The translations under genes were made by a program, and so were the position numbers. A stretch of 27,062 bases of DNA from a virus. Taxonomy: Duplodnaviria; Caudoviricetes. Below, in pieces: positions 1,950 through 19,346 of this stretch (its first letter is position 1; each line of letters begins with the position of its first letter). The notes under the pieces were generated by a model, which saw only the letters and a program-made list of their open reading frames with translations, was not told the origin of the DNA and ran no database searches. Location: IMG/VR virus record IMGVR_UViG_3300017784_001015, positions 1 through 27,062 of that record; one strand, given 5' to 3'.

Positions 1950-1981
1950 TTACTATTTGTTCTTGACCAAGAGATAACAAT

Positions 1982-2000
1982 AGGTTAACAGTGTTAACCT
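1982..2000. repeat. Perfect 9-bp inverted repeat AGGTTAACA-G-TGTTAACCT
   Basis: Read directly. It lies between convergent genes and overlaps the HNH stop codon. Confidence 0.85.
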
Positions 2001-2446
2001 GAATGCTTAGGATGATCGAACTCCCAGTGACAGTTGGGACATAACAAGATTAGGTTAGAGGGATCGTTGATGACAGATAGTTTTGTATCAAGAGGGTACT
2101 CAGAGACTGCCTTGATGTGACATACCTCTACGTGCTTTGAGTATCCGCAGTGTGTGCAAACCTTAGGCCAGTCTTTGGTTACTACCCTTGCCCTGCTACG
2201 CACTAAAGCAAAGGCACTTGACAGGTGGTGTAAGGTGTACATACCTTCCTCTAGGGTCATGTCTTTTGGTACAAGGCAATCATCACAAACAGTTCTTCGA
2301 GATGCCACTTGACAGCCACAACGAGTACAGCTATAAGTCTTAGATGTTCGTTTAGGTTTAACTCTATTGGATACTTTAGCTGAGCAAGAACGGGAACAGA
2401 ACTTTGGGTTGGGTGTAAGAACACCGCAACAAACACAAGAAATCAT
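1994..2446 (-). CDS. HNH endonuclease with several Zn-binding CxxC motifs (150 aa)
   Basis: C-terminal CTHCG...EVCHIK...NDPSNLILLCPNCHWEFD HNH signature; N-terminal CVCC/KFCSRSC and CTRC/CDDC. Start at ATG 2446 with AGAGAGGA Shine-Dalgarno. The first 26 codons of the listed ORF are only tRNA antisense. Confidence 0.9.
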   Translation of the reverse strand: MISCVCCGVLTPNPKFCSRSCSAKVSNRVKPKRTSKTYSCTRCGCQVASRRTVCDDCLVPKDMTLEEGMYTLHHLSSAFALVRSRARVVTKDWPKVCTHCGYSKHVEVCHIKAVSEYPLDTKLSVINDPSNLILLCPNCHWEFDHPKHSG

Positions 2447-2526
2447 GGGCGTGTATCCTCTCTGTCTTCTAAACAGGTGAAAAGGTAACTGGAAACATGG
2501 GGGTTCGAATCCCTCCACGCCCACCA
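2447..2526 (+). tRNA. Non-canonical tRNA-Arg(UCU) or tRNA-like RNA lacking a normally placed D-arm
   Basis: Acceptor GGGCGTG/CACGCCC plus A-CCA; T-arm GGGGG-TTCGAAT-CCCTC; anticodon arm TCTGT-CTTCTAA-ACAGG; only 7 nt between acceptor and anticodon stems; 21-nt extra region. Confidence 0.85.
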
Positions 2527-2554
2527 GTTATACACTAATCGAAACGAAAGTCAA
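2527..2554 (-). promoter_or_regulatory. Candidate sigma70-type promoter firing antisense through the tRNA into the HNH gene
   Basis: The minus strand reads TTGACT (2554-2549), a 16-nt spacer, then TATAAC (2532-2527). Confidence 0.55.
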
Positions 2555-2566
2555 GATAAACCTGCA

Positions 2567-2600
2567 CAGGTTGTAGGTTCGAGTCCTACTGGGTAGACCA
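2567..2600 (+). pseudogene. Orphan tRNA 3' half (variable region, T-arm, acceptor 3' strand, CCA), possibly Pro-type
   Basis: CAGGTT-GTAGG-TTCGAGT-CCTAC-TGGGTAG-A-CCA. No convincing D-arm or anticodon arm upstream. G72/A73 match tRNA-Pro identity elements. Confidence 0.7.
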
Positions 2601-2620: not shown

Positions 2621-4570
2621 ATGCAGACGAATACTAATCTACGTGTGGTTGAGAACAACAGCCACTCTACAAAAGACTTCACCATCCAAGCATCAGGTAA
2701 GATGTTTCACATGGTTATCTCTGGCCTCTACTCGAACAAGCCACAGTCAATCACTCGTGAGATTTGGTCTAACGCATTTGATGCACACGCTATGGTGGGT
2801 AAGCAGGACGTACCCTTCGAGGTTACATTCCCTACAGCACTGACCCCTGTGTTCTCCTGCCGTGACTTTGGTGCAGGTATTGCACACGAGAACATGGAAG
2901 GCTTCTACACTGTGCTTGGTCACTCCACTAAGGAGAACACCAACAAGGCTGTAGGTAAGTGGGGTGTTGGCCGTATGTCTCCAATGTCATACACAGATAC
3001 CTTCTCTGTGGTGTCTATCCACAAGGGTCTGGTTGCATACTACTCCATCCAGCTTGGCCCTGATGGATCACCACAGCTACACGTTCTGTCCGAGCCTTCG
3101 CCTACCAACCAGCCTGATGGGCTTGAGGTATCCTTCCCTGTTAAGCGTGATGATATCCCATCCTTCCAACGTGCAGCAGAGGTTGTATCTTATGGGTTCA
3201 AGGTTCAACCTCGTGTGAAGAACTCACGGGACAAACAGTTTCAGCCTATCAAGAAGTTGCTTGAGGGTGAAGGCTACTACTTCTACAACGACAGCCGTTT
3301 GTCTGGGCCTTATGCACAGATGGGGTGTGTCCTCTACCCTATCAATACCAATTCCCTACCATCTAGTTTGCTCTCATTCAACACTCGCAATGTTGTCTTT
3401 GAGTTTGACATTGGTGATCTTGAGGTGACTGCTTCCCGTGAAGACCTAAGCTATGGTGCTAACGACCCTACTTTGGAGAACATCAAGAGGGTTATCACCA
3501 GTATTAAAGATAATATGCAGGACAAGGCGCAGAAAGAGATCGACAAAGCGCCAAGCCTATACCGAGCGATCAAGGCTTCTTATGTGTACAATCGTACACT
3601 TCTTAACGCTAACTTTAGCTGGCGGGGGATGGCTATCAAGACCTATCGGCCAAGCCTACAGTACAATGGTCTGGCTATCCATGTGGGTAATAAGGGTTAC
3701 AAAGATACTTCTACTGTTGGGTTTGGTGCAGAGACAGAGGTTAACCTCACTGTGGACAATGTTATCTATGTGCAGGATGTGTCTGACAAGGTAGCTAATG
3801 TACGTGCAGCCAAGCGTATCTCATCTGACCTAAAGCCTAATGACAGGTTCATCTGGGTTAAGGCTGACCTGTCTGATGCAACAGCAAAGGCTAGTGTAGC
3901 TGCGCTGATCCATGACCTTGACTACCCTGTAAAGTATGTCAAAGACCTGTCAGATACTGGGCCAGTCAAGTCAGGGCCACGGAATAAACTATCCGTGAAT
4001 AGCGTAGATGAGAGCGGGTATCGCCGCGCGCTGGATATGGATCAAGCTATGTTCCAGAAGGGTGGCTTCTACTACCCTATGGAAGGTGGTGTGTACCCCA
4101 AGCATTTTATCAACCTTATTCCACTGGCTAAGAGTGAACTACTACAGGATATCATCCTTGTACCTAAGCCTATGTGGAAAAAGTTTGAGGCTGCACCACA
4201 ATGGCATTTGATTGAGCCTAAGTTGGACGAGTTGATTAAGGCTCGTGCTAAGTCTGCCCAAGATAAACTAGGTAATTCCTATCATTACTATACCTACCTA
4301 AGATTACGTCCCTTTGATGCTGCTACAGGTATTGTTGGTGACTTCGCTAAGAAACTGAATGGCGTTAAGCAATCAGAATATCTGGGCTTGACCCGTGGCG
4401 TGTGGGATGATAACCTAAAGAGACTTGAACTACCCCTGATCAATGATGAGAGGGTAAAGCAAGAGTATCAAGAGATCATTAACAAGTATCCCCTGTTGGG
4501 ACTAGACGCTATACTCGACAGGAATGCTAAACACTTCCTGCACTACATCAACCTAATCAACAACGCATAA
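2621..4570 (+). CDS. rIIA: RIIA-like protein with N-terminal GHKL/HATPase domain
   Basis: LYSNKPQSITREIWSNAFDAH, DFGAGI and STK...VGKWGVGRMSPMSYTD motifs; paired with an rIIB-like gene. Confidence 0.88.
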   Translation: MQTNTNLRVVENNSHSTKDFTIQASGKMFHMVISGLYSNKPQSITREIWSNAFDAHAMVGKQDVPFEVTFPTALTPVFSCRDFGAGIAHENMEGFYTVLGHSTKENTNKAVGKWGVGRMSPMSYTDTFSVVSIHKGLVAYYSIQLGPDGSPQLHVLSEPSPTNQPDGLEVSFPVKRDDIPSFQRAAEVVSYGFKVQPRVKNSRDKQFQPIKKLLEGEGYYFYNDSRLSGPYAQMGCVLYPINTNSLPSSLLSFNTRNVVFEFDIGDLEVTASREDLSYGANDPTLENIKRVITSIKDNMQDKAQKEIDKAPSLYRAIKASYVYNRTLLNANFSWRGMAIKTYRPSLQYNGLAIHVGNKGYKDTSTVGFGAETEVNLTVDNVIYVQDVSDKVANVRAAKRISSDLKPNDRFIWVKADLSDATAKASVAALIHDLDYPVKYVKDLSDTGPVKSGPRNKLSVNSVDESGYRRALDMDQAMFQKGGFYYPMEGGVYPKHFINLIPLAKSELLQDIILVPKPMWKKFEAAPQWHLIEPKLDELIKARAKSAQDKLGNSYHYYTYLRLRPFDAATGIVGDFAKKLNGVKQSEYLGLTRGVWDDNLKRLELPLINDERVKQEYQEIINKYPLLGLDAILDRNAKHFLHYINLINNA

Positions 4571-5568: not shown

Positions 5569-5778
5569 ATGTATAGTGTTTACGTTAGGGATAGTGGTGT
5601 GACTGTTGCCTCATCTGTGTTTGAGGGGTTGGCTGAGGCTGTCTCCTTTGGCAGAGAAGAAAGTCTTGAGGGTAATATTATCACTGTCTATTCAGCAGTG
5701 CAAGATGCAAGTGGAGACATTATGCATCTTTATAAGGTTCTCTATATGGTTATGCCTAAAGAGACACCTTATGTTTAA
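5569..5778 (+). CDS. Hypothetical protein (69 aa)
   Basis: AGGA Shine-Dalgarno; same orientation as neighbours. Confidence 0.6.
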   Translation: MYSVYVRDSGVTVASSVFEGLAEAVSFGREESLEGNIITVYSAVQDASGDIMHLYKVLYMVMPKETPYV

Positions 5779-5832: not shown

Positions 5833-5871
5833 AGGGTAGCACATGATGATGACTTATGCAAGTGCTACCCT
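5833..5871. repeat. 10-bp inverted repeat AGGGTAGCAC / GTGCTACCCT with 19-nt spacer
   Basis: Read directly; immediately upstream of the recombinase ribosome-binding site. Confidence 0.85.
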
Positions 5872-5888
5872 TACACAAGGGGAACAAC

Positions 5889-6968
5889 ATGAAGTATACA
5901 AAGAAGATTACACTAAAGGATGGGTCAACTGTCTATAGGTTTAGTCCACCAGAGGAAGTCAGGAAGGCTGGTGTAGTTGCCTCTAAGACCTTTACGGACG
6001 GTAGGGCTGCACGTTATGAGATACCTAGACTACTCGAAAAGGTAGCAGCCTATCGTAAAGGATATATCAAAGAGGGTAACGTAGGCCCAACCTCTAAGGT
6101 CAAACATATCATCAACTACTACCTATTATCCAAACAGTTTGCCTCTCTTGCTGGTAGTTCCCAGATCAAGTATGAGGCTGAATTGCTAAAGGTATCAAGC
6201 ATTTGGATAGGTGATGTGTCTGTCAACAAGCTCACTGCCAAGCTGTGCAATGAGGCATACGAACAGTGGGTGTCCGAACATTCTGTGGCTAGGGCTAATG
6301 AACGAGCAAGGTTGTTCTCTGTTGTTCTAAACTTTGCACGATCCTTAGACTTGATTAATGATAACCCTATGGGTAAGGTCAAGAAACTTAAGCATGAACC
6401 ATCTACCCCTATCTGGAAACAAGATCAGGTAGAGTTGTTCCTTGACACAGCCTTCAAGGATTTCAAGTGGAGAAACGTAGGGCTTCTCGTGATGATGTGC
6501 TATGAGTGGGCGCAACGACCTACTGACATATGCCACCTGACATGGGACAATGTTGATCTGGTTGGTGCTAGGGTATCCATCAAGCAGTCCAAGCGTGGGG
6601 CCGAGGTGTTCCTACCCATTGACGAGCCACTGCTATCCATGCTCAAGCAACAACAGGATGACTGGGGTTTCCAAAAGCTAGTAGTACCACACCATCGTAT
6701 ATCCGATAACGCTTATGTCCCGTTGACACCAGTAACATTCGGCCCTATACTTCGCTCCATAAAAGTTGCGTGTGGACTACCAGAAGACTTGAAGATTGGT
6801 CACTTGCGTAAGACAGCTATCAATGAGTTCGTGGCAGCGGGCGTTGACAGTACTGGGATCATGCAGGTGACAGGACACAAGAACATTAGCAGCCTCAACC
6901 CATACATGAGGCACACATACAATGGTGCTAAGACAGCACAGGGTATCCGCAAGGGGAACAAGGCATGA
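5889..6968 (+). CDS. Tyrosine recombinase / integrase-family protein
   Basis: Catalytic R (AQRPTDI), K (KQSKRG), R (GHLRKT), H (TGHKN) and Y (LNPYM). Start trimmed to ATG 5889 after AAGGGG. Confidence 0.88.
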   Translation: MKYTKKITLKDGSTVYRFSPPEEVRKAGVVASKTFTDGRAARYEIPRLLEKVAAYRKGYIKEGNVGPTSKVKHIINYYLLSKQFASLAGSSQIKYEAELLKVSSIWIGDVSVNKLTAKLCNEAYEQWVSEHSVARANERARLFSVVLNFARSLDLINDNPMGKVKKLKHEPSTPIWKQDQVELFLDTAFKDFKWRNVGLLVMMCYEWAQRPTDICHLTWDNVDLVGARVSIKQSKRGAEVFLPIDEPLLSMLKQQQDDWGFQKLVVPHHRISDNAYVPLTPVTFGPILRSIKVACGLPEDLKIGHLRKTAINEFVAAGVDSTGIMQVTGHKNISSLNPYMRHTYNGAKTAQGIRKGNKA

Positions 6969-10024: not shown

Positions 10025-11257
10025 ATGGCACTGTATGAACTGACAAGCGGTAAAGACTTTGTAAAGTTGGGCGACAAAGTTTTCAGTAAGTATATAGAAG
10101 TCCCAAAGAATCCCTTCTCGTTCAATGAATGGTTAGACAAACACGTACCTGAATACTGTGTAAAGCTTTGGGAAGACAAGGACGAGGTTAAGCCACGGGT
10201 GTTGAACAAAAAGATTCACGAGAACTTTGGTTCTAAGATAACCCTGCGCTTGAACGCTGCACTATACAAAACGTTCATCAAAGCGAACTTCCCCCGTGAG
10301 ACTTACTTTGCTATTAGTCGTAGAGGTATGCGGTGGAATACCTTTTCTCCCTACATGGTACAGACAGCACTAGAGAACAAGCATCTGATTGACCAAGCAG
10401 TTAAGGACAGAACGATCAACCTGATCCCACTAATGCTTGAGTTTGGGGAAGACCCACAACAGCTACGCAAAAGGTTTGGTAAGGGTTTGTGGAAACAACT
10501 AGCACACACCTCAAAGACTAGGATGAAACACCTTGCACCCCTGCTAAAATACAGCACAAAACTTACCTCTGTGAGGACAGGTATTTTACCCTTAGTATCC
10601 ACATATAATATGAATACTATGAACCTTGATGGATACTTATTAACCGCAGCTAGGATTGCTCCACGTATCAAAGACTTTGATCAGACACTTGATATCATAA
10701 GAGATACTATGTATATGGCTAATAGGGCTGGGGTTGAGGTAAACCATGACTGGTCTTATCGTCGTTGGAGTGAAGAGCATGATCGTCTGTCATGGGATGT
10801 GGCACGTAAGGGTTACTCCGAGACAAAGTTTGCAGAAGATTGTAGCTTTACACAGAATGGATATACCTTTACACTCCTAACTTCACAGGCTGATATCTCC
10901 GCAGAGGGTATGCAGATGAGACACTGTGTTGCATCCTATGCGCTATGTGCTAGTATTGGTACGTATGCTGTGTTCAAGATTGAGGGTAAGGAGAGGGCAA
11001 CCCTTGGTCTTAATATTACCCCAACACTTGAGGTAGTCAATCTGAAACCTAACAGGGTTCTTCACGCCTCACTACAACAATGCTATGGCCCACGTAACCA
11101 ACCTATATCCAGTGAACTACGCGACACACTACCAGATATTGTAAGGATGTATAATGATCTTATTCGACACGGAAACAGATGGACTGCTACGGCAAGCAAC
11201 GAAAGTCCATGTCCTGTCGTGGACAACGAATGGGAAAGAATTCGCGTCTACTTCTAA
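10025..11257 (+). CDS. PcfJ-like domain protein
   Basis: C-terminal EHDRL...LLTSQADISAEGMQMRHCVASY...RATLG...QCYGPRN signature. Confidence 0.7.
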   Translation: MALYELTSGKDFVKLGDKVFSKYIEVPKNPFSFNEWLDKHVPEYCVKLWEDKDEVKPRVLNKKIHENFGSKITLRLNAALYKTFIKANFPRETYFAISRRGMRWNTFSPYMVQTALENKHLIDQAVKDRTINLIPLMLEFGEDPQQLRKRFGKGLWKQLAHTSKTRMKHLAPLLKYSTKLTSVRTGILPLVSTYNMNTMNLDGYLLTAARIAPRIKDFDQTLDIIRDTMYMANRAGVEVNHDWSYRRWSEEHDRLSWDVARKGYSETKFAEDCSFTQNGYTFTLLTSQADISAEGMQMRHCVASYALCASIGTYAVFKIEGKERATLGLNITPTLEVVNLKPNRVLHASLQQCYGPRNQPISSELRDTLPDIVRMYNDLIRHGNRWTATASNESPCPVVDNEWERIRVYF

Positions 11258-16904: not shown

Positions 16905-18810
16905 CTACCTGCCTACAGACTATCAGTCGTTTATCGGAATTTCACGCTATGCCCGCTGGCTAGAGGAACTAAGTCGTCGTGAAAACTGGGGTGAAACTGT
17001 CTTTCGCTACATGGAGAACGTAGTAAATAAACTCCTTGCAAGCATTAATCACGTAGGTGGTGAGGCTATCGCTATTGAACAGGCTATCCTTAGCCTAGAC
17101 ATTATGCCTTCCATGCGGGCTGTTATGACTGCTGGCCCTGCGCTAGATCGTGATAACACTGCGGGGTACAACTGTTCGTATATGCCAGTGGATGACCCTA
17201 AGGCTTTTGACGAAGCTATGTTCATCCTGCTGTGTGGCACTGGTGTGGGCTTCTCTGTGGAGCGCCAGTTCATCAGCAAGCTACCAGAAGTACCAGAGAA
17301 TATGTTCCAGTCCGAGACCACTGTTGTGGTTAAGGATAGCAAAGAGGGTTGGGCTAAGGCACTACGTCAAGTGATTGCCCTGCTATACTCTGGTGAAATC
17401 CCTAAGTGGGATGTGTCTCTGGTTCGTCCTGCTGGTGCTAAGTTGAAGACCTTTGGTGGCCGTGCATCAGGCCCAGCGCCTCTGGTTGACTTGTTCCAGT
17501 TCGTTATTAGTAAGTTCAAGGAAGCCAAGGGACGTAAGCTATCGTCTATCGAATGCCATGACATCATGTGTAAGATTGGTGAAGTCGTCGTAGTTGGTGG
17601 TGTTCGTCGTAGTGCTATGATCTCTCTGTCTAACCTGTCAGATGATCGTATGCGTTACGCTAAGTCTGGTAACTGGTGGGAGAATAACCCTCAACGTGGT
17701 CTGGCTAATAACTCTGTTAGCTATACCGAGAAGCCTGATGCAGTAAGCTTTCTACGTGAGTGGACTGCACTTGTTGAGAGTGGTTCTGGTGAGCGTGGTA
17801 TCTTCAATCGTCAGGCATCCAAGAAGCAGGCAGCAAAGAATGGTCGCCGCAAGACTGACTTTGAGTTTGGTACTAACCCATGCTCAGAGATTATCCTGCG
17901 TCCATATCAGTTCTGCAACCTGACGGAAGTTGTTGTACGTGCTACGGATACGATCAAGACACTGGAAGAGAAGGTTCGCCTTGCTACCATCTTGGGTACG
18001 ATCCAGTCAACCTACACCAAGTTCCCCTATTTGCGTAAGATTTGGCAAACCAATACAGAAGAAGAGCGTCTGCTTGGTGTATCTCTGACGGGGATCATGG
18101 ACAATCCTCTGATGACTACAAAGAATGCTGGTCTAGATAAAACATTGGAGCATCTAAAGAATGTCGCTATTACTACTAATGCTGAGTGGGCTGAGCGCCT
18201 TGGCGTTCCTGTATCTGCTGCTATTACTTGTGTTAAACCATCGGGAACCGTCTCGCAACTTGTTGACTCAGCCTCAGGTATCCATGCTCGCCATAGTGCT
18301 TACTACATTCGGACTGTTCGAGGCGACAATAAAGACCCTCTTACACAGTTTATGAAAGACCAAGGTATCCCATCTGAACCTGATGTGATGAAGCCTACAC
18401 AGACCACCGTGTTTAGCTTCCCAATGAAGGCTCCAGAGGGTGCAGTGGTAACGGCTGACCTGAGTGCTATCGACCAGCTAGAGATGTGGTTGGCCTATCA
18501 GCGTCACTGGTGTGAGCATAAGCCATCTGTTACGATCAACGTGAAGGCAAGCGAGTGGTTCGAGGTAGGTGCTTTTGTCTACAAGCACTTTGATGAAATG
18601 TCTGGCGTATCCTTCTTGCCATACAATGAGCATACCTACCAGCAAGCACCCTACCAAGATATTGGTAAGTCCGAGTATGATAACCTGCTGTCTATTATGC
18701 CACTAGCTATTGACTGGGCCAAGCTTGCAGACTATGAACAGGAAGACAATACTTCTGGATCACAGACGATGGCTTGCGTAGGCTCTTGCGAAATTGTCGA
18801 TCTATCGTGA
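16894..18810 (+). CDS. nrdJ: Class II (adenosylcobalamin-dependent) ribonucleotide reductase
   Basis: PSMR, YNCSY, GTGVGFS, VGGVRRSA, TNPCSEI, QFCNLTE and TCVKPSGT motifs; C-terminal Cys pair; no beta-subunit gene in the window. Confidence 0.92.
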   Translation: MGNNYLPTDYQSFIGISRYARWLEELSRRENWGETVFRYMENVVNKLLASINHVGGEAIAIEQAILSLDIMPSMRAVMTAGPALDRDNTAGYNCSYMPVDDPKAFDEAMFILLCGTGVGFSVERQFISKLPEVPENMFQSETTVVVKDSKEGWAKALRQVIALLYSGEIPKWDVSLVRPAGAKLKTFGGRASGPAPLVDLFQFVISKFKEAKGRKLSSIECHDIMCKIGEVVVVGGVRRSAMISLSNLSDDRMRYAKSGNWWENNPQRGLANNSVSYTEKPDAVSFLREWTALVESGSGERGIFNRQASKKQAAKNGRRKTDFEFGTNPCSEIILRPYQFCNLTEVVVRATDTIKTLEEKVRLATILGTIQSTYTKFPYLRKIWQTNTEEERLLGVSLTGIMDNPLMTTKNAGLDKTLEHLKNVAITTNAEWAERLGVPVSAAITCVKPSGTVSQLVDSASGIHARHSAYYIRTVRGDNKDPLTQFMKDQGIPSEPDVMKPTQTTVFSFPMKAPEGAVVTADLSAIDQLEMWLAYQRHWCEHKPSVTINVKASEWFEVGAFVYKHFDEMSGVSFLPYNEHTYQQAPYQDIGKSEYDNLLSIMPLAIDWAKLADYEQEDNTSGSQTMACVGSCEIVDLS

Positions 18811-19346
18811 AGAAAGACTTAACAGGTAAAACTTTTGGCTCCCTCTACGTTGTAGGGGTGGCCGAGGTTTCTCGCAATGGACACTATAGATACTGCGTAA
18901 AATGTTTGTGTGGTGTTGAAAAGGTTGTTTTAGGTACCCACCTTCTACAAGGTAATACAACACACTGTGGATGTTCAAAACGAAAACCAAGAAACTGGAA
19001 AGGGTGTGGAACCGTTTCTGCTACTTATTTTAGTTCCCTCAAGAGAGGTGCAGATGGTGGGAAGGGGCGTAAGCCTATCCTTTTCAAGGTTACGATAGAG
19101 TCTATTGCAAACTTGTTAGATGTAGTGCAGAAAGGTAAGTGTGCCTTGACAGGTCTCAAAATCTCTATTAAGGATAAGACAGCCTCACTAGACCGAATAG
19201 ATAGTTCTAAGGGCTACGAGGAAGGTAACGTGCAATGGCTACATAAGGATGTTAATATGATGAAACGTCACTACTCTCAGGATTACTTTGTTTATCTTTG
19301 TCACCTTGTATCTGGTGATGCTTGTGAGATTGTTGACTTGACTTAA
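18807..19346 (+). CDS. Free-standing HNH-type (beta-beta-alpha-Me) putative homing endonuclease
   Basis: The GTG start overlaps the RNR stop (GTGA). N-terminal DLTGKTFGSLYV...KCLCG; C-terminal CALTG...SLDRIDSSKGYEEGNVQWLHKDVNMMK. Confidence 0.85.
   Translation: MKKDLTGKTFGSLYVVGVAEVSRNGHYRYCVKCLCGVEKVVLGTHLLQGNTTHCGCSKRKPRNWKGCGTVSATYFSSLKRGADGGKGRKPILFKVTIESIANLLDVVQKGKCALTGLKISIKDKTASLDRIDSSKGYEEGNVQWLHKDVNMMKRHYSQDYFVYLCHLVSGDACEIVDLT

Follow-up and report, generated by a model that had tools for sequence, protein, structure and literature searches.

A putative homing HNH nuclease cassette with a rewired tRNA-Arg(UCU) gene at the site of a resident phage tRNA gene

The window, a 27,062-nt stretch of phage DNA (IMG/VR record IMGVR_UViG_3300017784_001015), encodes on its plus strand rIIA, rIIB, an integrase, ThyX, a primase-helicase, a family A polymerase, a class II ribonucleotide reductase and PhoH. 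The polymerase shares 48-53% identity with its counterparts in small Pseudomonas and Roseobacter phages, so the host is not settled and an alphaproteobacterial host is not established. The sequencing runs containing window DNA are mostly from freshwater. A tyrosine integrase gene lies within the replication arm (5856-6968) and a PcfJ-like gene between the helicase and polymerase genes (10025-11257). A second, unrelated endonuclease (HNH / endonuclease VII-like) is encoded at 18774-19346, directly 3' of the ribonucleotide reductase gene.

At the locus studied here, a gene for a free-standing HNH endonuclease stands head-to-head with a tRNA gene, and the two, together with a promoter-like site, form a segment of about 560 bp that we refer to as the cassette (Table 1). 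As the preliminary description of this DNA had stated, the HNH gene is the sole credible minus-strand gene in the first 21 kb, where 17 other minus-strand ORFs of at least 83 aa gave no PHROG match, and its ATG (2446-2444) touches nucleotide 1 of the tRNA at 2447 with no gap. Homologues align from the Met at 2446; a longer GTG start at 2524 was rejected, as homologues begin at Met 2446 and the extensions are translations of antisense tRNA. The protein consists of a Cys-rich N-terminal part and a C-terminal HNH domain, in which His, Asn and Cys residues are invariant (alignment, n = 34) and the catalytic and metal-binding residues are intact. Only HNH families were matched in Pfam and PHROG, with no GIY-YIG catalytic domain, and the family of the window HNH comprises at least 1007 clusters. 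The structural model (pLDDT 88) matched the HNH fold at a middling Z of 5.5-5.7; a sequence search of PDB gave no significant match, Foldseek returned none at E 0.001 or better, and PADLOC yielded weak HNH-motif matches only. No intron family was detected in the window by Rfam at gathering score. The cassette is wholly occupied by the HNH gene, the tRNA and the promoter, and is not inside a self-splicing intron or intein.

Table 1. Features of the cassette and its flanks, in window positions
Feature	Position	Strand	Details and evidence
Promoter-like site of the resident locus, TTGACC-17-TAACAG	1963..1991	plus	sequence; similar site in cassette-free L295-L299
Left flank, same sequence as upstream of the ordinary tRNA-Arg(UCU) in L298	1972..2005	plus	tRNA nucleotide 1 equivalent to G2005
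Palindrome at the HNH stop codon, resembling a minus-strand terminator	1982..2000		also in cassette-free sisters
Free-standing HNH endonuclease, 150 aa	1994..2446	minus	Pfam HNH_2, E 2e-10; PHROG HNH
Rewired tRNA-Arg(UCU)	2447..2526	plus	acceptor 2447-2453/2516-2522; anticodon TCT 2468-2470; T arm 2499-2515; A73 2523; CCA 2524-2526
SD-like site of HNH, antisense of the 5' strand of the swapped D-stem	2456..2463	minus	sequence; same origin in 7 zero/one-gap rows
Swapped D-stem, CCT 2457-2459 paired with AGG 2483-2485, enclosing the anticodon arm	2457..2485	plus	covariation, RNAalifold
Relocated D-loop (A14 A15 ... G18 G19 at 2491-2492, A20 at 2493), leading on to U48 and the T stem	2486..2498	plus	numbering inferred
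HNH promoter-like site, TTGACT-16-TATAAC	2527..2554	minus	sequence and relatives; predicted start near 2520
Operator-like inverted TTCRA pair, 34 bp apart, flanking the -35 box	2539..2582		candidate binding site
What is left of the resident ordinary tRNA-Arg(UCU) at its 3' end, from the variable loop through the T arm and acceptor 3' strand to CCA	2568..2600	plus	match to L298

The Rfam tRNA model matches positions 2447-2523 with 35.7 bits, in an alignment that skips the D-arm, while ARAGORN calls nothing at 2447-2526. A 19-bit model match at 5669-5747 falls within an ORF and is without a T-loop, and was taken as chance. The tRNA had been described as D-armless, and a canonical D-arm hairpin 5' of the anticodon arm is indeed not present in the Rfam alignment. 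The term nevertheless does not fit, since the 5' linker pairs with three bases located 3' of the anticodon arm in an alternative helix that covaries, and the D-loop motif then follows. We infer that the two strands of the D-stem are swapped, such that nucleotide 9 would lead into the strand that is normally 3', the anticodon arm into the strand that is normally 5', and the D-loop into the T arm. The strand links needed by a stem swapped in this way would be short in the L-shape of tRNA. The anticodon loop is unchanged from that of the ordinary gene.

BLAST with the region retrieved stretches of Streptomyces, Microbacterium and Salmonella phages that had been mis-annotated or carried no annotation, and a search pattern was built from these matches. 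The pattern fixed the motifs U8-A9-U-C, G-U-A-A, UGG, A-U and TTCRA, which are not evidence because they are imposed by the search; it placed no constraint on the anticodon, on any stem, on two of the three D-stem pairs proposed or on the base that follows GG. A search of viral DNA gave at least 120 stretches (an estimated 280), with 105 distinct matches, of which 101 had tRNA-like stems and four were dropped. Among the matches listed, the two free D-stem pairs are Watson-Crick in 100/101 and 92/101 genes, as compared with shuffled means of 30 and 47. In an alignment of 104 genes, these pairs have undergone 64 and 38 double changes, all four helices covary, and RNAalifold recovers the swapped helix unaided; the comparison of sequences thus establishes covariation of the swapped D-stem. 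A single-sequence fold of the rewired tRNA could not be distinguished from shuffles (z -1.0); the structure rests on covariation.

The anticodons among the matches listed were of two kinds, Arg in 68 and Ile-type (GAT, TAT or CAT) in 33, with no others; an assumption that all rewired genes are tRNA-Arg was therefore wrong for 33 of the 101. Base identity follows this division. Among the genes listed, the relocated GG is followed by A in 68/68 with an Arg anticodon and by T or C in 33/33 of the Ile-type, all 33 of which also carry A73, so that the link between base 20 and isotype is plain in the aligned genes. The identity rules set out in passages of PMC9976931 are A20 for Arg, and U20 together with A73 for Ile. 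The window's rewired tRNA-Arg has the ArgRS identity set A20, C35 and U/G36, the number of position 20 being our assignment. As judged from these sequence features, the rewired RNA probably folds into the normal L-shape via different strand connections and is charged by ArgRS.

Rewired genes are rare, with about 280 stretches as compared with about 22,000 having the ordinary Arg(UCU) pattern. One of them is present in the genome of phage Felix O1, and this form was found over 80% of its length in 252 cultured-phage records, cultured coliphages included. Among 30 matches listed for the Felix O1 form, four have a tRNA label and none names Arg. In Felix O1 itself (L006), the unannotated rewired tRNA-Arg(UCU) at 3401-3482 is followed directly by a small gene at 3498-3845 with a weak HNH match (E 0.008); the authors of the Felix O1 genome paper noted that one would have expected to see a tRNA for AGA there (PMC3185647). 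Annotation has also gone astray in Streptomyces phage Mildred21, where a gene annotated as tRNA-Phe(gaa) is a rewired one with the anticodon TCG (L001:2508-2586). The 33 Ile-type tRNAs (GAT, TAT, CAT) include those of L017, L021, L023 and L102, among others of L007-L126, and two or three rewired genes apiece were seen in L079, L099 and L102. In prokaryote genomes the pattern gave 34 matches, 19 with a strong model score, nearly all of them in metagenome bins; one rewired gene lies on a contig of an isolate genome (Aquamicrobium, L212:1483-1560). We also noted a second type of rewired tRNA-Arg(UCU), with a longer swapped stem and linker (L129:1240-1340, L138:1340-1430, L142:1400-1490, L237:632-720). 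This type is unmatched by our model R1; reading by eye placed it head-to-head with a family HNH in L129/L130, L138, L142 and L237. In the open full-text literature searched, we found no paper on the rewired tRNA topology or on a cassette of nuclease and replacement tRNA.

To place the cassette among related phages we read the locus in 15 of 18 rIIA relatives; three, at 34-40% identity, were left out, and L215, which is the window itself, was excluded from all counts. The tRNA before rIIA is an ordinary tRNA-Arg(UCU) in 11 of these sisters, a rewired gene alone in two and part of a cassette in one, and one sister has none at the locus (L299). The window's cassette is absent from 14 of the 15 sisters; it is thus optional at the locus, and empty alleles exist. 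The intact tRNA of L298 lies between two stretches that are common with the window, 1972-2005 and from 2568 through the T arm. The 5' half of the host tRNA after G2005 is gone from the window and the 3' remnant is kept. Because the tRNA is complete in sisters that share these flanks, the remnant at 2568-2600 comes from replacement, and the series of sister alleles establishes at sequence level that the resident gene was replaced. Other cassettes are placed alike. An intact gene of L295 matches both halves that flank the cassette in L304/L127, where the anticodon arm alone is missing, and in L128 the break falls within the resident gene's anticodon loop. Orphan Arg-type 5' halves were found at the HNH end of 7/116 distinct loci, four of them with a matching 3' half 570-670 nt away. 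The preliminary description had proposed, as one option, a mobile unit in the manner of SegB; the sister alleles and split halves support this option and sharpen it, in that the cassette replaced the resident tRNA-Arg gene and brings a substitute.

Contigs that skip the cassette occurred in three of four sequencing runs, with two of the three joints being weak, as they rest on a 20-letter side at 88% likeness. In run X9 the depth was about 267 for the cassette form as compared with about 103 for the form that skips it, the flanks being separated by 76 letters; the short sides make this comparison weak also. Several further alleles were observed. The rewired tRNA-Arg(UCU) that stands alone at the window's locus, with no nuclease, belongs to another subtype (L296:2403-2480, L297:2403-2480). 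In L300 (1630-1830) a broken rewired gene opens with the resident acceptor strand and is followed by an ordinary Arg gene and another nuclease-like gene, an arrangement that bears signs of repeated invasion of this locus. In L308 (1108-1545) an unrelated 95-aa HNH-like gene and an ordinary but divergent tRNA-Arg(UCU) split the resident Arg gene. The two genes stand head-to-head and a promoter-like site lies beyond the tRNA, so that the layout of the cassette has been arrived at independently; the same replacement tRNA is found in L306. In L146 (1905-1970) an apparent 3' half of a rewired tRNA comes just after an HNH gene that is preceded by an ordinary Arg gene with an altered T-loop, an order that would result if a rewired gene had in turn undergone replacement.

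The HNH family is associated with tRNA-Arg beyond this locus. A rewired tRNA adjoins 25 of 116 HNH loci. A family HNH lies in the 800-nt flanks of 10/80 rewired loci, as compared with 0/80 and 1/80 ordinary Arg loci, and the single ordinary case has an altered T-loop. ARAGORN calls within 260 nt of a family HNH were Arg(UCU) in 40/124 instances. The ordinary-shaped Arg(UCU) genes beside HNH are unusual in that a normal T-loop TTCRA is kept in 17/34 of them vs. 106/109 background Arg genes, although the two sets passed through different filters and their rows, which include near-copies, are not independent. At the same HNH loci, non-Arg tRNAs keep TTCRA in 199/224 cases. Where the T-loop of such an Arg gene is altered, a matching change in the D-loop is often present. 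In L285 a rewired gene and an intact ordinary gene occur together.

We consider it probable, on the strength of these sequence comparisons, that the segment is a homing "home-and-rescue" cassette, which would cut the ordinary tRNA-Arg(UCU) gene and carry a rewired substitute that is predicted to remain uncut. An alternative, itself compatible with a cassette, is that the rewired tRNA was selected against a tRNA-cutting defence of the host, or for the codon needs of the phage, with the HNH being a passenger or amplifier as SegB is for tRNA-Tyr in T6. As a family HNH is missing from the 800 nt around 70/80 rewired loci, and as the rewired gene stands alone in L296 and L297, rewiring may have another origin or use; the 252 cultured-phage records of the Felix O1 form, the existence of Ile-type versions and PMC13096335 also speak for such selection. 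Yet the anticodon loop is the same in the rewired and the ordinary gene, and the explanation leaves without a cause the split remnants, the altered T-loops beside HNH and the pairs of half-sites at HNH promoters that are described below. We therefore regard it as unlikely.

The two signals proposed for HNH expression lie where the preliminary description placed them. The promoter-like site TTGACT-16-TATAAC is found at 2554-2527 on the minus strand, directly after the CCA. Alone it is within chance (three matches at one mismatch vs. a mean of 1.95), and it misses the rule of the sigma-70 scanner, which does not list it; a matching promoter lies at the same place in L127, L128 and L129. The complement of TCCTCTCT (2456-2463) is an SD-like site 9-10 nt upstream of the HNH ATG. 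When the leader was folded free, without any tRNA, 7/8 SD bases were predicted to be paired (unpaired probability 0.01-0.18) within the leader's own stems, which mirror those of the tRNA. On the other strand, the promoter-like site at 1963..1991 would be expected to drive the tRNA and rIIA through the HNH gene in antisense; we take it to be the phage's own and not the cassette's. The palindrome at 1982-2000 overlaps this plus-strand promoter, is kept in sisters with and without the cassette, and could be a repressor site of the phage.

It had been suggested from this layout that the nuclease is gated by the tRNA, which itself or as precursor would anneal to the antisense leader and block HNH translation, so that loss of the tRNA would switch the nuclease on. 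The predicted 74-nt leader would be fully complementary to the tRNA, with a duplex of about -160 kcal/mol calculated for a 121-nt leader, and the promoter beyond the tRNA 3' end is conserved in the three loci named above. The unrelated small HNH of L308 is also head-to-head with an ordinary replacement tRNA. Of the 26 tree rows with a rewired tRNA, a gap of zero or one was found in 7, in two tree groups, where the SD derives from the swapped stem of the tRNA and gives a duplex energy of -6 to -8 kcal/mol (-3.6 or weaker in rows with a 45-58-nt gap). However, in 14/26 rows the rewired tRNA is separated from the gene by 45-76 nt, and this gap and not the tRNA holds the SD region; an RBS overlapped in antisense is confined to the seven rows and is not conserved across the family. 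HNH and tRNA are even in tandem on the same strand in L139 and Erwinia phage Ep030. As 7/8 SD bases are predicted to be paired in the free leader, which would bury its own SD, tRNA loss alone would not open the site; and as the plus-strand transcript runs in antisense across the full length of the HNH gene, an antisense effect would not be specific to the tRNA. These results leave the gating circuit very unlikely. The zero-gap overlap is itself real and, by its distribution over the tree, may have arisen twice. Some antisense damping of HNH is plausible; a switch released by loss of the tRNA is neither needed nor general.

Could the rewired RNA be something other than a translating tRNA, such as a decoy, a processing signal or a pseudogene, with a cassette that destroys a dispensable tRNA gene? 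ARAGORN misses the rewired gene, L299 does without a tRNA at the locus, AGA makes up 14/196 Arg codons in the ten plus-strand genes counted, and the top pair of the anticodon stem fails in 55/104 aligned genes. But four helices covary, the anticodons are confined to Arg and Ile-type even though the pattern left them free, bases 20 and 73 follow the identity rules of the synthetases, and the rewired gene stands in the place of the ordinary one. Such a role is thus very improbable.

For a candidate target of the nuclease we scanned the 220 nt before the HNH start codon for TYGAA...TTCRA, with 31-34 bp between the halves, at the 73 of 133 loci that had a safe start, enough flank and a distinct sequence. 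An inverted pair of half-sites was present at 31/73 loci, in 23 of them with neither half in a T hairpin; the strict pair was missing at 42/73. In controls, the pair occurred in 6/654 windows around ordinary Arg genes, in 0/73 regions downstream and in 0-2 per shuffle. Beyond the five bases used in the search, the half-sites also agree with the T-loop consensus (T at +6 in 51/62). In the window, one half of the pair is a mimic located in the promoter spacer (2539-2543), and the other is the T-loop remnant of the host gene (2578-2582). A comparable arrangement exists within the ordinary gene, whose D-loop TGGA is 33 bp from the T-loop in 9/11 sister genes and at 31-34 bp in 78/107 background genes. 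The centre of this interval is the anticodon loop, where cassettes break the ordinary gene. Such a half-site at 31-34 bp is found in 1/104 rewired genes. Any tRNA with a short variable loop has, by its construction, a D-to-T distance near 33, and the D-loop half agrees with the operator half at 3/5 bases. The full predicted target is kept in 10/34 ordinary-shaped Arg genes beside HNH, nine counted by script and L141 by eye. An escape mainly via the D-loop half was considered and rejected, for 9/11 genes with a normal T-loop and anticodon loop keep TGGA; the signal is in the T-loop.

SegB recognises GGTTCRANTCC according to passages of PMC2330249, and I-TevI represses its own synthesis through a mimic of its homing site (as related in part of PMC2988022). 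The half-site and T-loop data suggest a candidate target, autorepression and immunity by rewiring. We give about even chances to a model in which the HNH recognises a pair of half-sites in the tRNA gene separated by 33 bp, namely GGTTCRANTC of the T-loop and, on the opposite strand, TGGA of the D-loop, which includes the Arg-specific A20. The cut would fall in the interval, at the anticodon, and the move of the D-loop would destroy the spacing. We lean slightly towards the view that the uncuttable copy of the target across the HNH promoter acts as an operator for autorepression. That the half-sites are instead the two sides of a hairpin in RNA, or what remains of decayed tRNAs, with the 3' remnant being an attachment site for the integrase that the window encodes, would fit the right half-site lying 1-9 nt before the ATG in 11/31 cases, as do RBS hairpins of T4 endonucleases in passages of PMC2988022, but is extremely improbable given about 5-7 complementary bases around an A+T-rich 31-34-nt spacer of fixed length and variable sequence.

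By the proposed mechanism, the cassette would spread by homing, with the nuclease cutting the ordinary gene of relatives that infect the same cell. Arginine decoding would be restored by the rewired tRNA, whose own gene would not be cut, since the D-loop moved beside the T arm would destroy the half-site spacing. The nuclease would repress itself via the target copy at its own promoter, for which the victim's T-loop is reused, and the antisense orientation and the self-folding leader would keep its output low. The head-to-head overlap could then be a compaction that ties the HNH RBS to the tRNA. In its fullest form, the model holds that working tRNAs of a new topology arose as an immune rescue allele against a nuclease that cuts tRNA genes. 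The HNH would read the D-loop TGGA/T-loop TTCRA pseudo-palindrome, cut at the anticodon, insert together with its rescue tRNA and repress itself, making up a natural home-and-rescue drive that reshapes tRNA architecture. We offer this complete account tentatively and hold it to have somewhat less than an even chance of being right.

Should the rewired RNA prove to be charged and to decode, the order of the cloverleaf arms would not be required for the function of a bacterial tRNA, and tRNA finders would be missing genes in well-studied phages, e.g., Felix O1. Escape from selfish nucleases that cut tRNA genes would be a selective cause for odd phage tRNA sequences besides host defence. The half-site model also makes sharp predictions for a 150-aa enzyme.

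Free-standing endonucleases in phage tRNA clusters are known, as described in parts of PMC2330249 and PMC13096335. Like SegB of T4/T6, as portrayed in those passages, the cassette has a free-standing nuclease in a phage tRNA region, and the T-loop motif GGTTCRANTCC of SegB is the consensus of the cassette half-sites. SegB, however, is a GIY-YIG enzyme encoded between tRNAs, whereas the cassette HNH replaces part of a tRNA gene, brings a substitute tRNA and is linked mainly to tRNA-Arg(UCU), with a predicted site of two inverted halves around the anticodon. I-TevI and other T-even endonucleases, in the sections of PMC2988022 that deal with them, have a homing-site mimic over their own promoter, for which we have a candidate here, and a leader structure that damps translation. 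In contrast to I-TevI, the cassette is without an intron, one of its putative operator halves is a remnant of the invaded tRNA, and its leader is the mirror image of a tRNA. It would also resemble SegF and SegG, described in the same source as examples of intronless homing, in that an endonuclease outside any intron or intein moves by cutting the allele of a related phage; the cuts made by those enzymes lie hundreds to thousands of bp away from where their genes are inserted, whereas the cassette sits in its predicted target. The cassette is a variant of free-standing homing endonucleases, and the topology of the tRNA is its most surprising part.

In permuted tRNA genes the usual order is restored by processing, and the rewired order is beyond such restoration. 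With bacterial class I tRNA-Arg (RF00005) the rewired tRNA shares the 7-bp acceptor, the 5-bp T stem, the 7-nt anticodon loop, U8, the GG motif, A20 and CCA; it differs in that its D-stem encloses the anticodon arm and its D-loop lies between the anticodon arm and the T arm. The D-arm passages of an account of described non-canonical tRNAs (PMC7609411) make no mention of phage. D-armless mitochondrial tRNAs lose the D-arm to an unpaired linker, whereas the rewired tRNA loses nothing.

Fungal mitochondrial homing endonuclease genes that invade atp6 or rps3 bring along a gene end by which the interrupted gene is restored. As in these and in synthetic home-and-rescue gene drives, the nuclease would invade a gene and bring a sequence that restores its function. 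The cassette differs from both in that the rescue is a whole, separate tRNA gene, predicted to be resistant by its changed architecture.
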